10,064 bases of DNA from Escherichia phage CBA6, in sequence record KM389298.1; one strand, 5' to 3'. The notes beneath the pieces were generated by a model. That model was not told where the DNA came from and did no database searches. It was given only the letters and a program-made list of their open reading frames with translations. The translations under genes were made by a program, and so were the position numbers. Position 1 is the first letter of the stretch; each line of letters opens with the position of its first letter. Positions 6,067 through 10,064 of the stretch are shown here, one piece after another.

Positions 6067-6095
6067 ATGATAGGGCTGTCACCATGTTGAGTAAA
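6067..6095 (-). promoter_or_regulatory. Candidate sigma70-type promoter for the exported-protein gene pair
   Basis: Minus strand: -35 TTTACT (6095..6090), 17-bp spacer, -10 TATCAT (6072..6067), located in the 84-bp gap upstream of the 6038 start. Confidence 0.35.
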
Positions 6096-6122: not shown

Positions 6123-6572
6123 TCAGTATCGACTATCACTGACCGTTCTGTATCGCACCCCTTGAAACTGTTTAGCGAGTTTAACAAATTCCATCGCTGG
6201 CAAATCAACTTTGTAGACCTTCATGCGCTGTTTGCCGTCCATGTTCAACGCAGCGACAAATCGGTGAGAACCGTCAACAACGTAATTGTCAGAAGACACC
6301 CAAACTCGACCCATGGGCTTCTTATTTCTGATCTGCTTCATAATCTTCCAGACCTTCATTTTATTGATTTCGTTCTGGGTAAGACGAAGCATTTTGATAG
6401 GCACTTGCGCAGCATCTATAGACACGCCGTTGTCTTCAAGATATTTGTGAAAATCTTCTTGTTTGTCTGCATCGATTTGCGGCATAGAAGAACGAGAAAG
6501 CCCGAGGTTCCCAACAGGAATCCTCAGGCCATTTATGATATTCATCCAGTCAATAAAGGATGTAAGGAACAT
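6123..6572 (-). CDS. ParB/Srx-fold (ParB-like nuclease / sulfiredoxin superfamily) domain protein, 149 aa
   Basis: Segment ...MLRLTQNEINKMKVWKIMKQIRNKKPMGRVWVSSDNYVVDGSHRFVAALNMDGKQRMKVYKV matches the ParB/Srx pattern (hydrophobic strand, then DG-x-HR-x-x-A, then hydrophobic strand). ATG 6572..6570 preceded by GAGGTG. Confidence 0.5.
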   Translation of the reverse strand: MFLTSFIDWMNIINGLRIPVGNLGLSRSSMPQIDADKQEDFHKYLEDNGVSIDAAQVPIKMLRLTQNEINKMKVWKIMKQIRNKKPMGRVWVSSDNYVVDGSHRFVAALNMDGKQRMKVYKVDLPAMEFVKLAKQFQGVRYRTVSDSRY

Positions 6573-6609: not shown

Positions 6610-6888
6610 TCATTCGGACTTAAACAACAATTCGCGAACAGAAGTCCCAACGATATTCTGGGTGTTCAACAAACGAGTTAAATCATCCATGTCATATGCT
6701 GAATTGGTGATATGACGCAAGATAATCGCCAACATTCCCTCCAGCGCTCTCCGATTGTTATTCTCTTCAATGTCAAACTTAATTTCAACAAATCGAGATA
6801 GCATTCTGGATTGAGCATGAGTTTCGTTGGTTTTGCTCTGTATAATATCTTTGATTTCCGAACGAGCAATACTTCTTTGATCTGTCAT
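6610..6888 (-). CDS. Hypothetical protein, 92 aa, starting MTDQ
   Basis: ORF with ATG 6888..6886 preceded by AAGGAA. Its leader and first four codons are near-identical to those of the 6941..7447 gene. Confidence 0.6.
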   Translation of the reverse strand: MTDQRSIARSEIKDIIQSKTNETHAQSRMLSRFVEIKFDIEENNNRRALEGMLAIILRHITNSAYDMDDLTRLLNTQNIVGTSVRELLFKSE

Positions 6889-6946
6889 GATATAGTTCCT
6901 TCATTTCAAATGGGCGGGGCAAAGATACCCCGCCGTGGGTTTATAG
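6877..6946 (-). repeat. Copy A of a ~70-bp regulatory cassette: TATAAA box, GC-rich stem-loop, CATTTGAAATGAAGGAA leader, ATG ACA GAT CAA
   Basis: Aligned by eye to 7436..7505 at roughly 80% identity. Stem-loop GGCGGGG-n8-CCCCGCC at 6913..6934. Confidence 0.6.
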
Positions 6947-7447
6947 GGTAATAAGTGATACGGTAAAAACCATCGTCCCATCTGTTGTCATTTTTCTTGA
7001 AACTGGGAAGACGCGAGGCTGGCAGAATATCCATTCTTTCTCCATGGACGCCAAGTCCAGCATATCCATTTCTGATTCATCGTCTTTGTTCACAAATTTT
7101 TCTAGAGAACCAAAGACATTAAGCCCCTCTGGGAGTCCGTTTCGATGTTTGTAACAAATGCGAGCAACAGCTCTGGTTCCATACGATTTAGAAAATTGTT
7201 TGGCCACATGCTTCAGTTCGCTGAAACTAAGACAAGAATCCCATGTCTGAAACATGTCTCCTCGTTCAAACATCATCTCCAAACGCGCAACGTCCTCTTT
7301 AGGCAACCCGCGATAAAGTGTGGTCATCTGCGGTTCGCGTAATTCTTGCACCAGACCACGGATGGCAGGGGAAACAGTGCCAGGGCGCATGATGTGGGAC
7401 TTATCATGGACGAGGTAAAATAAATCTTGAATTTGTTGATCGGTCAT
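6941..7447 (-). CDS. Candidate mono-ADP-ribosyltransferase (R-S-ExE class), 168 aa
   Basis: Three motifs in the order and approximate spacing of R-S-E ADP-ribosyltransferases: 'TLYRG' (aromatic-Arg), 'LSFSE' (S-x-S) and 'EKEWIF' (E-x-E followed by hydrophobics). ATG 7447..7445 preceded by AAGGAA. Assignment is from motifs only. Confidence 0.45.
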   Translation of the reverse strand: MTDQQIQDLFYLVHDKSHIMRPGTVSPAIRGLVQELREPQMTTLYRGLPKEDVARLEMMFERGDMFQTWDSCLSFSELKHVAKQFSKSYGTRAVARICYKHRNGLPEGLNVFGSLEKFVNKDDESEMDMLDLASMEKEWIFCQPRVFPVSRKMTTDGTMVFTVSLITL

Positions 7448-7505
7448 GATGTATTTCCTTCATTTCAAATAGGCGGGGTAATCATACCCCACCCTAAGTT
7501 ATAGA
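7436..7505 (-). repeat. Copy B of the ~70-bp regulatory cassette (TATAAC box, stem-loop, shared leader, ATG ACC GAT CAA)
   Basis: Stem-loop GGTGGGGTA-tgat-TACCCCGCC in minus-strand RNA (plus-strand 7472..7493). Identity to copy A covers leader, SD, start codon and codons 2-4. Confidence 0.6.
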
Positions 7506-7506
7506 A

Positions 7507-7746
7507 TTAACTGATGTGCTTCAGAAGAGCGAAGAGGATCGCGGCCTTGGCTTTCACCTTTCCGACGACGCCTGTTTCGACATCGACTTCTTCGGCAACC
7601 CAATCTTTTCCCTTCTTGCTGATGATAACATCGCGGCGCTGGGCATATACTTCTTTGGTCGCATACACACGACGGAACCCTTTAGCGCGGAGCAAGCCCC
7701 AATTACGATCAATCTCCACTGAAGTTTCTACTATTTTGTTCTTCAT
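7507..7746 (-). CDS. Hypothetical small basic protein, 79 aa
   Basis: ORF with ATG 7746..7744 preceded by AAAGGTAAG; lies downstream of the promoter candidate at 7798..7826. No recognisable motif. Confidence 0.55.
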   Translation of the reverse strand: MKNKIVETSVEIDRNWGLLRAKGFRRVYATKEVYAQRRDVIISKKGKDWVAEEVDVETGVVGKVKAKAAILFALLKHIS

Positions 7747-7797: not shown

Positions 7798-7826
7798 ATA
7801 ATACGCATTTGCCTTATAGAAGTAAA
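7798..7826 (-). promoter_or_regulatory. Candidate sigma70-type early promoter
   Basis: Minus strand: -35 (G)TTTACT at 7826..7821, exactly 17-bp spacer, -10 TATTAT at 7803..7798; sits between a terminator and the 7746 start. Confidence 0.4.
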
Positions 7827-7869: not shown

Positions 7870-8196
7870 TTACTTGCGCAGGGCAACCACGTATTCGGCA
7901 AGTTCACCCATGGTCGGGTCGTCGCCTTTACCGCCCAGCCAGCCATCAGAGATCTCGACATTGAACTCTTCTTCTAGTTCCATGACGATTTCGATGGCAT
8001 CAAGATCGTCGCCGCCGAGGTCTTTCTTGGTGCGGAGGCCAGCCAGTTTATCCAGGGCGTCATTCATAATCACTTCCGCGTCGACGATGCCTTTGATGCT
8101 GCTCTTGTCTTCGTCACTGACTTCCAGGTTCAGATTGTCAGTGGCGTACTGAGCCAGGTGACGCATTACTTCAACATAAGTTGGTTTGTTTGACAT
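7870..8196 (-). CDS. Acyl carrier protein (ACP)-like protein with Asp in place of the phosphopantetheine-attachment Ser, about 108 aa
   Basis: Core ...KKDLGGDDLDAIEIVMELEEEFNVEISD... aligns with canonical ACP helix II (E. coli ...[27 protein letters not shown]...), but the conserved DSL Ser is Asp (codon GAT at 8015..8013, checked on the DNA). Start taken as ATG 8196..8194; ATG 8202..8200 is an alternative. Confidence 0.7.
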   Translation of the reverse strand: MSNKPTYVEVMRHLAQYATDNLNLEVSDEDKSSIKGIVDAEVIMNDALDKLAGLRTKKDLGGDDLDAIEIVMELEEEFNVEISDGWLGGKGDDPTMGELAEYVVALRK

Positions 8197-8215
8197 AAGC
8201 ATATCTCAAAATGAA

Positions 8216-8231
8216 GGCGGGTTTCCCCGCC
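8216..8231 (-). terminator. Stem-loop between the large upstream gene and the ACP-like gene (weak terminator or RNA processing/stability element)
   Basis: GGCGGG-gaaa-CCCGCC followed on the minus strand by TTCATTTTGAG. Same stem composition and YATTTGA tail as the other intergenic hairpins. Confidence 0.4.
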
Positions 8232-8239
8232 AGTTGAAT

Positions 8240-10064
8240 TTAGATTTTGACTTCTTTTTCAGACAGTTCGGCAGTGACGGTGTATTTCACCCCATCAACT
8301 TCCACATCCATAGTGGATTCTTCCAAATCCAGGTCGGTAAACCAACCATGGCCTGCAACAATCCCATAAACTACCTTGGACAGCGTTTTGTTCAGGGCGC
8401 GGACTTCGTTAATGGCTGCTTTTGCTGCATCACCAATCCAACTTTCGATCAGCTTTTTCTGAGTCTCTTCCGGTACGCTGGTGATCATCGGCGATTTAAC
8501 AAACGCATTGTATTCAGCCAGGGCATTAGCGATCAGCTGATCAGCGACATTCAGTTTTTTACCGTCCGTCTGTTTTTTGATAACAGACGCGATGCTCGGC
8601 AGTGAAGATGCGCCTTTGATTTTCACATTCAATTCACGACTCATATAGACATCGGTTGATTCTACAGAAGAAGTCTTCGGTGAAAATCCATAGTCGCGAA
8701 TGCCGTTTGCTGACAGGAAATCAGCCGCTTCTTTGCCATATTTTGAAGCCAGACCCGTAGCGTTGCCTTTTCCAACCAGTTCATCACGGTAGAATTTCAG
8801 AACTTTCTGTTTTGCCTTCAATGCTTCACGGCGCACATTGTCTGCAAAGAATTCAGCAGCACTGATATTCTTTGTCATGGCGCGGTTAACCATTGGGACA
8901 CTTTCCAGATTTACAATGAAGACTTCCGGCCCACCAAACACATGAACACCCATGGCAGTCAAATCCTGTGCCACCTTAGCCCGAACAATCGGAGAATCTG
9001 CAGTGATAGGCATTGTTTTCAGGTTGATGATACCATCCTTGACAATGGTGTAATTGCGATAACGCCATGTATCCAGCTCTTCAGGAAGTTCATATTTCTT
9101 CTGTACAAACTCGGGCACAACAACCGTTCCGTGTTGAACTGTCTGCACACTGATGTTAGGACGTTCTGAATTATAGACCAAATTGCTGATCGGGACAATC
9201 CCTTTATCATCTGCTGGATTGAATTCCGGCGTCCAATCTTCGTGCTCGGCCAGTTTGAGCGCCAGGGCTTTACGCTCTTCTTTAGAAGTCGCATTCGCAA
9301 TCTCTTCGGCCAACTTGTCTTCGGTGTCGTCAACTTTTTGTATAGTACCGCGCCCAATGCTCTTGTAAGAGAATAGCGGATGCTTGGTGACGATAGAGAC
9401 ATCTGCTTCAGCCAAATACGTCAGAACATCAACAATGGTGGTGGCGTCTTCAGCCGGAACCATATTATAATCGATGCCATCAACTCCTCGCAGAGATTCG
9501 TCTACGATAGCCTGAGTCAGATCGACTTTGATGTTGGAGTAATCCTGCTTGGTGAAACAGTTGCTGTATTGTTTGATGAAGCGGACGTCACCCGTTTTCT
9601 TCAGCGCAGCCCAAACCAAATCTGCGTCCATGGTATACACGCCGTAAAATGCCAGCACGTATGCCGCTTGGATGTCTGCCAGATTATCCAGCTGGTCGAT
9701 CATGTTGGGGTTTACAACCCACAGCTGAGAAACGCTTTCAGGGATGCTGACGTGGCCAATAGGGTGCTCTTCATCAGGATGCACGGCTAAAACAGTCGCC
9801 ACGCCATTTTCAACATAAATGGCATGGGTGTAAACCAGGGGAACATCGACCACCACTTTCGGTGAAGAAGTTTTTAGCACGTTTTCCAATTCGGTCTGAT
9901 ATTCATTCTGGCCTTCAGCGAATACGTGGGTCGCACCAGAACGTTCTGCCATTAGCGCCAGCAGTTCGCGATTACAATACCAACCGTATTCGATGAAGGT
10001 AATGTTATCAAACGCTTTGGGCAGTACTTCAGCGGCATCCAGGATTTCATTAGAACGCCAGCAG
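8240..10064 (-). CDS. Large hypothetical protein (at least 570 aa in window, probably longer); N-terminus likely beyond the right edge
   Basis: ORF 8240..9952 in the track; the same frame stays open with protein-like sequence (…SNEILDAAEVLPKAFDNITFIEYGWYCNRELLAL-MAERSG…) from 9953 to 10064, and no SD precedes ATG 9952. No Walker A, polymerase, ligase or other catalytic motif recognised. Confidence 0.6.
   Translation of the reverse strand, partial: CWRSNEILDAAEVLPKAFDNITFIEYGWYCNRELLALMAERSGATHVFAEGQNEYQTELENVLKTSSPKVVVDVPLVYTHAIYVENGVATVLAVHPDEEHPIGHVSIPESVSQLWVVNPNMIDQLDNLADIQAAYVLAFYGVYTMDADLVWAALKKTGDVRFIKQYSNCFTKQDYSNIKVDLTQAIVDESLRGVDGIDYNMVPAEDATTIVDVLTYLAEADVSIVTKHPLFSYKSIGRGTIQKVDDTEDKLAEEIANATSKEERKALALKLAEHEDWTPEFNPADDKGIVPISNLVYNSERPNISVQTVQHGTVVVPEFVQKKYELPEELDTWRYRNYTIVKDGIINLKTMPITADSPIVRAKVAQDLTAMGVHVFGGPEVFIVNLESVPMVNRAMTKNISAAEFFADNVRREALKAKQKVLKFYRDELVGKGNATGLASKYGKEAADFLSANGIRDYGFSPKTSSVESTDVYMSRELNVKIKGASSLPSIASVIKKQTDGKKLNVADQLIANALAEYNAFVKSPMITSVPEETQKKLIESWIGDAAKAAINEVRALNKTLSKVVYGIVAGHGWFTDLDLEESTMDVEVDGVKYTVTAELSEKEVKI

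Follow-up and report, generated by a model that had tools for sequence, protein, structure and literature searches.

Mod-type phage ADP-ribosyltransferases (ARTs) reprogramme host transcription and translation, and the closest described systems are those of phage T4. T4 ModB (NP_049636) is both a mono-ADP-ribosyltransferase and an RNAylating enzyme, with S1, EF-Tu, trigger factor, and L2 as targets; that it attaches RNA to proteins was shown recently, and an R73A substitution abolishes both its ADP-ribosylation and its RNAylation activity (PMC10468400). ModA (NP_049635) ADP-ribosylates both alpha subunits of RNA polymerase. Alt (NP_049811), a protein of 682 amino acids (aa), is packaged in the phage head and injected. 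Here we analyze a gene for a 168-aa protein in a stretch of 10,064 nucleotides (nt) from Escherichia phage CBA6 (record KM389298.1), referred to below, at its full length, as the window. We conclude that the product (here, the ART protein) very probably consists of a single, catalytically competent mono-ADP-ribosyltransferase domain of the R-S-ExE type and belongs to the same family as ModB and ModA, as judged from sequence comparisons and a structural model.

The ART gene occupies positions 6941-7447 of the window and lies, like the other genes, the protein motifs, the RBS, and the promoter candidate of the unit described below, on the minus strand. It runs from an ATG start to a TAA stop and is preceded by a ribosome-binding site (RBS), AAGGAAA, at 7454-7460, 6 nt upstream of the ATG; an RBS is also annotated in the record of phage Mutine. 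The window is DNA of a Kuttervirus (Ackermannviridae, Cvivirinae), whereas ModB comes from a member of the Straboviridae. Megablast of the whole window against a phage collection matched 276 records, of which 132 cover at least 80% of it, and the best matches (~92-96% identity) are Kuttervirus phages of Salmonella and Escherichia coli, namely, SeF6a, Mutine, phage 38, PhaxI, and FEC14.

Homology to ModB and ModA

Membership in the Mod family is visible along nearly the full length of the protein. PHROG 832 ("RNA polymerase ADP-ribosylase") matches residues 2-159 with E=8.5e-16. When a profile of 47 related sequences was aligned to the T4 proteins with hhalign, ModB was recovered with a probability of 99.2% (E=1e-19, 163 columns) and ModA with 98.0% (E=2e-13, 159 columns). 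Both proteins are thus full-length homologues, ModA being the more distant of the two, and ModB resembles the ART protein in consisting of a single domain. The hhalign and MAFFT alignments place the residues of the putative active site in the same register, so that R46, S74, and E136-x-E138 correspond to R73, S99, and E171-x-E173 of ModB and to R72, S96, and E163-x-E165 of ModA. The counterparts of S74-F-S76 are S99-F-T101 in ModB and S96-A-S98 in ModA, and those of E136-K-E138 are E171-Q-E173 and E163-Q-E165; the corresponding motifs of the bacterial Vis toxin are S-T-S and E-A-E. Full-length homology together with an R, an S-x-S/T, and an E-x-E in register is what defines the Mod family, for which a size of ~200 aa is expected; the ART protein has 168.

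Other searches led to the same family. Among solved structures, the profile matched the Vis toxin (E=2e-5), whose YRG, STS, and ExE motifs fell into the alignment; ExoT, ExoS, and Lmo0066 gave weaker matches. A profile search of a collection of 5.8 billion proteins returned proteins named ModB or ADP-ribosylase at E ~1e-18. Pfam matches below threshold among the 47 members included ADPrib_exo_Tox (10 members) and DRAT (10 members), as well as ART matches. Precomputed matches to Pfam PF26816 (Mod_ADP_RT) are listed for homologues that are 80% (P0003) and 57% (P0006) identical to the ART protein, and P0070 has a weak one; the list has no entry for the cluster of the ART protein itself (P0001). 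A Pfam scan of six close homologues gave no match, and the same scan was silent on proteins that do carry a precomputed PF26816 match.

Two other placements within the ART superfamily were considered and rejected. T4 Alt is not detectably related at the profile level (hhalign probability of 0.4% over 19 columns around the ExE), and therefore we assign the ART protein to the Mod type rather than to the packaged Alt type. What it has in common with Alt is the R-S-E superfamily clade, and it has no extra domain and lacks the large N-terminal packaging region of Alt. The window contains no genes for head or packaging proteins, and a sigma70-like promoter candidate precedes the unit to which the ART gene belongs. 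As for the H-Y-E clade (diphtheria toxin, PARP, DarT, and KptA/Tpt1), neither an H-Y-E triad nor closest structural similarity to its members was found.

Some family members carry the ART domain in larger proteins. In a distant one of 763 aa (P0012), a Mod-like ART domain (residues ~10-146) is fused to a type IB DNA topoisomerase (Pfam Topoisom_I, E=8e-21, and Top1B_N_bact), and three others (P0023, P0057, and P0059) are fusions to long uncharacterised regions.

Catalytic motifs and predicted fold

The sequence-only reading had rested on three short motifs, LYRG, SFS, and EKE, found in this order with spacings of 28 and 62 residues. Reading the codons bore this out and added the strand, which had gone unstated. 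L44-Y45-R46-G47 (the "R" motif, at 7307-7318) aligns with R73-G74 of ModB and R72-G73 of ModA; S74-F75-S76 (the "S-x-S/T" motif, at 7220-7228) follows 28 residues after R46; and E136-K137-E138 (the "ExE" catalytic motif, at 7034-7042) begins 62 residues after S74. A relaxed form of this pattern ([YFWL]RG-x15-45-S-x-[ST]-x40-90-E-x-E-[hydrophobic]) occurred in 227 of 200,000 shuffles of the protein, and because this is only ~0.1%, the triple is improbable by chance.

The residues concerned are strongly conserved. In close relatives (at least 55% identical), R46, G47, S74, E136, and E138 are invariant. In the alignment of 47 sequences, of which those from outside the Kuttervirus clade share 19-33% identity with the query, neither G47 nor E138 varies, and R46, S74, E77, E136, W139, H14, and K16 each occur in at least 90%. 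Searching 1.84 billion representative proteins with a profile yielded 58 relatives, most of them 160-215 aa long, with L-x-H-D-K-x-H, L-Y-R-G, S-F-S-E, and E-x-E-W-I as common motifs. The first of these marks the subfamily: the ART protein has H14-D15-K16-S17-H18 (at 7394-7408), and the subfamily has H-D-K-x-H where ModB has E-A-K-K-N, so that K16 is the sole residue of the motif in common with ModB (K47) and ModA (K48). At the nucleotide level, the ratio of nonsynonymous to synonymous polymorphism (pN/pS) is 0.17-0.37 in comparisons with close alleles that differ by few substitutions, and from these small counts, the gene is under purifying selection.

Structure prediction gave a consistent picture. 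AlphaFold2 (AF2) with a 9-sequence alignment reached a predicted local distance difference test (pLDDT) score of 64, with the other four models at ~46-48, and was replaced by a run with the 47-sequence alignment, which gave a pLDDT of 94.5 and a predicted template-modelling (pTM) score of 0.88. The model shows the canonical R-S-E arrangement: R46 lies in the predicted strand 44-47 (beta1), S74 in strand 72-76 (beta2), which is followed by helix 79-89, and E138 opens strand 138-142. The R-S-E clade is recognized by an ART fold in which beta1 carries the R, beta2 carries the S-x-S, and a later strand opens with the ExE. In the fold comparison, the tabulated values were 11.3 for Vis, 11.0 for Certhrax, 11.0 for C3bot2, 10.9 for VIP2, 10.8 for an iota-like toxin, 10.6 for HopU1, and 10.5 for Tre1; compared with BFVD models of the T4 proteins, the model gave template-modelling (TM) scores of 0.70 for ModA and 0.68 for ModB. 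The bacterial R-S-E toxins and effectors (Vis [4xzj], C3 exoenzymes, VIP2/iota Ia, HopU1, ExoS/ExoT, and Tre1) are only 7-18% identical to the ART protein. Unlike them, it comes without secretion, translocation, or an immunity partner and, being phage encoded, would act inside the infected cell.

Predicted activity and its alternatives

The R-S-ExE mono-ART of the ModA/ModB type that had been proposed from the motifs is thus upheld by profile homology, residue register, and fold. Two checks that could have overturned it, on the conservation of R, S, and E in homologues and on the presence of an ART core in the structure prediction, both came out in its favor. We consider it most likely that the protein modifies host proteins as a mono-ADP-ribosyltransferase specific for arginine. 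In such an enzyme, nicotinamide adenine dinucleotide (NAD+) would be bound in the cleft of the split beta-sheet and positioned by R46 and S74, the motif around R46 being predicted to contact the NAD phosphates. E138 would stabilise the oxocarbenium-like transition state that forms after nicotinamide leaves, and E136, as the first Glu of the ExE, would specify arginine as the acceptor, as it does in other ExE enzymes. ADP-ribose would then be moved to the guanidinium group of an arginine in a host protein soon after infection, with a mono-ADP-ribosylated protein as the product; the ART gene would be expressed as the second gene of a small unit behind a sigma70-type promoter.

Several observations weigh against this interpretation. 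Scans of the ART protein alone against Pfam-A, NCBIfam, and PADLOC gave no match, even at E<=10. Compared with ModB, the protein lacks ~28 N-terminal residues, and the Kuttervirus branch lacks an aromatic GFxYW...DGD segment that most members of the subfamily have between beta4 and the ExE strand. The gene is dispensable, as many sister phages are without it. The early timing is predicted from a promoter of consensus type. Finally, our literature searches found no experimental work on ARTs of Ackermannviridae, Kuttervirus, or CBA120.

If the silence of the single-sequence searches were taken at face value, the protein might be a degenerate pseudo-enzyme, or the motifs a chance occurrence, with no ART activity. 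The original call had been made on three short motifs, and searches with the protein alone were empty in Pfam and NCBIfam and against the Protein Data Bank (PDB), where phmmer returned just a chance match to citrate synthase (E=0.87). Yet the rarity of the pattern among shuffles, the retention of catalytic residues in relatives of 19-33% identity, the full-length homology to ModB and ModA, the high-confidence ART fold, and a pN/pS below 1 largely refute this explanation. We regard loss of activity as extremely improbable, and the evidence from conservation, homology, and fold makes a chance occurrence of the motifs untenable.

The choice of substrate and donor is less constrained. Because the N-terminus is shorter and the GFxYW...DGD segment is missing, substrate recognition may differ from that of ModB, to which the protein is only ~22% identical (168 aa compared to 207 aa) and which also has a longer insert between beta4 and the ExE strand. 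One possibility is ModB-like RNAylation, in which NAD-capped RNA would serve as the donor and RNA chains would be attached to OB-fold proteins of the host, ribosomal or other, instead of RNA polymerase simply being ADP-ribosylated. ModB carries out this reaction through the same R-S-ExE site (PMC10468400), and ModB scores better against the family profile (E=1e-19) than ModA does (E=2e-13). However, the gap between the two scores is modest, the identity to ModB is low, and the shortened N-terminus and beta4-beta5 insert fall in regions that might bind RNA or substrate; moreover, the sequence does not discriminate between NAD and NAD-RNA as the donor. We therefore see RNAylation as conceivable yet rather doubtful, and continue to favor transfer of ADP-ribose to arginine in host proteins.

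An exchangeable slot between conserved genes

The ART gene lies between a 79-aa gene (phrog_804, at 7507-7746), which is upstream and the first of the putative transcription unit, and a 92-aa gene (phrog_4458, at 6610-6888), which is downstream. Conserved copies of the flanking genes occur in 282 phage records; the ART gene is found in just 77 records, 66 from Ackermannviridae and 11 from distant Erwinia jumbo phages, whose proteins are ~26% identical. The ART gene is thus not a core gene in Ackermannviridae. The slot that it occupies between these two neighbors (6889-7506 in the window) is polymorphic across the family. In SeSz-1 and Dickeya phage RC-2014, it is occupied by denV, which encodes a pyrimidine-dimer glycosylase and is present in 100 Ackermannviridae records; in ISTP3, barely, and PhiSH19, it holds an ART allele of 55% identity; and in UTK0004, it is empty.

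Comparison with ISTP3 places the boundaries of the exchanged segment. DNA identity is 82-93% from ~7736 to 7377, which covers the 79-aa gene, the leader, and the first ~23 ART codons. It is mostly ~45-55% from 7376 to ~6600, which takes in the remainder of the ART gene and all of the 92-aa gene, and returns to 93-100% from 6592 onwards, in the 149-aa gene. Since identity drops at around codon 23 and recovers only at the 149-aa gene, the ART and 92-aa genes diverge together as one module. Given the variable contents of the slot and the sharpness of these boundaries, we infer that the ART gene is an accessory cassette exchanged by recombination.

In the window, the ART open reading frame is bracketed exactly by two direct repeats of 65 nt, which are 83% identical and spaced 559 nt apart. 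Read along the minus strand, both copies comprise a GC hairpin, an RBS, and the codons ATG-ACn-GAT-CAA. The upstream copy (7436-7500) ends in the first four codons of the ART gene (ATG-ACC-GAT-CAA, MTDQ) and the downstream copy (6877-6941) in those of the 92-aa gene (also MTDQ), and because of this repeat pair, the two genes share a leader and both start with MTDQ. The upstream hairpin, GGTGGGGTA-TGAT-TACCCCGCC (7472-7493), lies between the 79-aa and ART genes and has a predicted RNA folding energy of -20.3 kcal/mol (z -2.9); the second copy (6913-6934) lies between the ART and 92-aa genes and has about the same predicted stability (about -20 kcal/mol, z about -2.9). All related loci that were examined have the hairpin after their 79-aa gene, and two copies of the leader and hairpin occur only in loci with the window-type ART allele (the window, SeF6a, Mutine, and CBA120). 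The empty locus of UTK0004 is 562 bp shorter, close to the repeat spacing, and retains a single hybrid copy of the leader.

This arrangement recalls the PeSL-type cassettes of T4-like phages, in which intergenic stem-loop repeats likewise bracket a variable gene and sister genomes differ by exactly one gene (PMC2839356, PMC4122927). Unlike PeSL elements, the repeat in the window is made up of a hairpin, an RBS, and four codons with no sigma70 promoter inside, and is found only locally. No further copies of the leader hairpin were found elsewhere in the window or in CBA120 at 1-50 kb, so we treat the leader as a local pair rather than as an established genome-wide PeSL-like element.

Behavior as a cassette could also suggest that the protein is a counter-defence or host-takeover effector, directed at a host immunity or stress protein or at the NAD pool (as an NADase) rather than at the transcription or translation machinery. 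The distribution fits such a role, with ~66 Ackermannviridae genomes carrying the ART gene, ~100 carrying denV, and some having neither in the slot, as do alleles of only 55% identity set between flanks of 88-100% identity, a pattern that host-interaction genes typically show. Nevertheless, a non-essential gene of the Mod type would be expected to be just as variable in its presence. Neither PADLOC nor any other defence-related match was obtained, nothing linked the protein to a known defence target, and the conserved E-x-E with intact R and S favors transfer to protein arginine over hydrolysis of NAD alone. We consider this role unlikely.

We give about the same small weight to a further reading, in which ~60 small L-x-H-D-K-x-H proteins form a distinct and previously undescribed Mod-like sub-clade, including the Kuttervirus branch without GFxYW...DGD. 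These proteins would differ from ModA and ModB in their substrate or donor, which might be NAD-capped RNA or a defence or stress protein of the host, for instance, and in Ackermannviridae the gene would be an exchangeable host-adaptation cassette alternating with the UV-repair gene denV. An ordinary Mod-type ART carried in an exchangeable slot thus remains our preferred interpretation.

Candidate promoter and genomic setting

The unit made up of the 79-aa, ART, and 92-aa genes is preceded by a candidate sigma70-like promoter, TTTACT-N17-TATTAT, at 7798-7826. Both hexamers are kept in five related loci despite differing spacers, and the conserved hexamers therefore suggest early transcription dependent on host RNA polymerase. 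The ART gene is thus probably expressed early, as predicted from the promoter. The "early region" of the sequence-only reading gains a conserved promoter from this analysis; its timing is still deduced from that promoter, and literature searches found no transcript timing data. A second site of similar form, TTTACT-N17-TATCAT, is present at 6067-6095.

Every gene in the annotated part of the window is on the minus strand. In the order of transcription, they are a vWA-like gene, an acyl carrier protein (PP-binding, at 7870-8202), the 79-aa, ART, and 92-aa genes, a 149-aa protein with weak matches to ParB-like nuclease PHROGs (E ~1e-3, at 6123-6572), and the spanins. These are followed by several genes without assigned function, an SPFH/Band-7 lipoprotein (1983-2777), an HU-family DNA-binding protein (1621-1935), and a helicase. 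The vWA-like gene (8240-9952) was suspected of truncation by a stop codon, which was rejected when its translation showed that the gene runs past the end of the window. Between it and the acyl carrier protein gene, at 8216-8231, is a perfect 6-bp GC hairpin, GGCGGG-TTTC-CCCGCC, with a terminator-like score on both strands. CBA120 orf021 ("Tk.4-like") was considered as a macro-domain partner of the ART and dropped, as Pfam gave no match.

Annotation and significance

The gene is already known by homology and is an ordinary relative of ModA and ModB. CBA120 orf140, 97.6% identical to the ART protein, is named "RNA polymerase ADP-ribosylase", and the same product name is used in SeF6a, Mutine, Det7 (gene 48), PhaxI, FEC14, and other RefSeq records. 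As near-identical genes carry this annotation and the family is well known, the novelty is low. The product name can be traced to PHROG 832, explicitly so in the SeF6a record, and RefSeq gives that type of name ("RNA polymerase ADP-ribosylase/ribosyltransferase" in the case of Alt) to ModA, ModB, and Alt alike, even though the ART protein is detectably related to ModB and ModA but not to Alt; the PHROG label, too, lumps the Mod and Alt types. Nothing therefore supports the "RNA polymerase" part of the name, which should be read as a transferred label, not as evidence.

Although the value of the gene as a discovery is small, this correction to its name is useful. The natural variants of the locus, with the ART gene, with denV, or with an empty slot, have flanking genes of 88-100% protein identity where compared and thus provide a ready comparison of phages with and without the ART. 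As a compact 168-aa enzyme in the well-studied Kuttervirus group (CBA120, Det7, and related therapeutic and biocontrol phages), it might be used as a minimal model of substrate choice by Mod-type ARTs.

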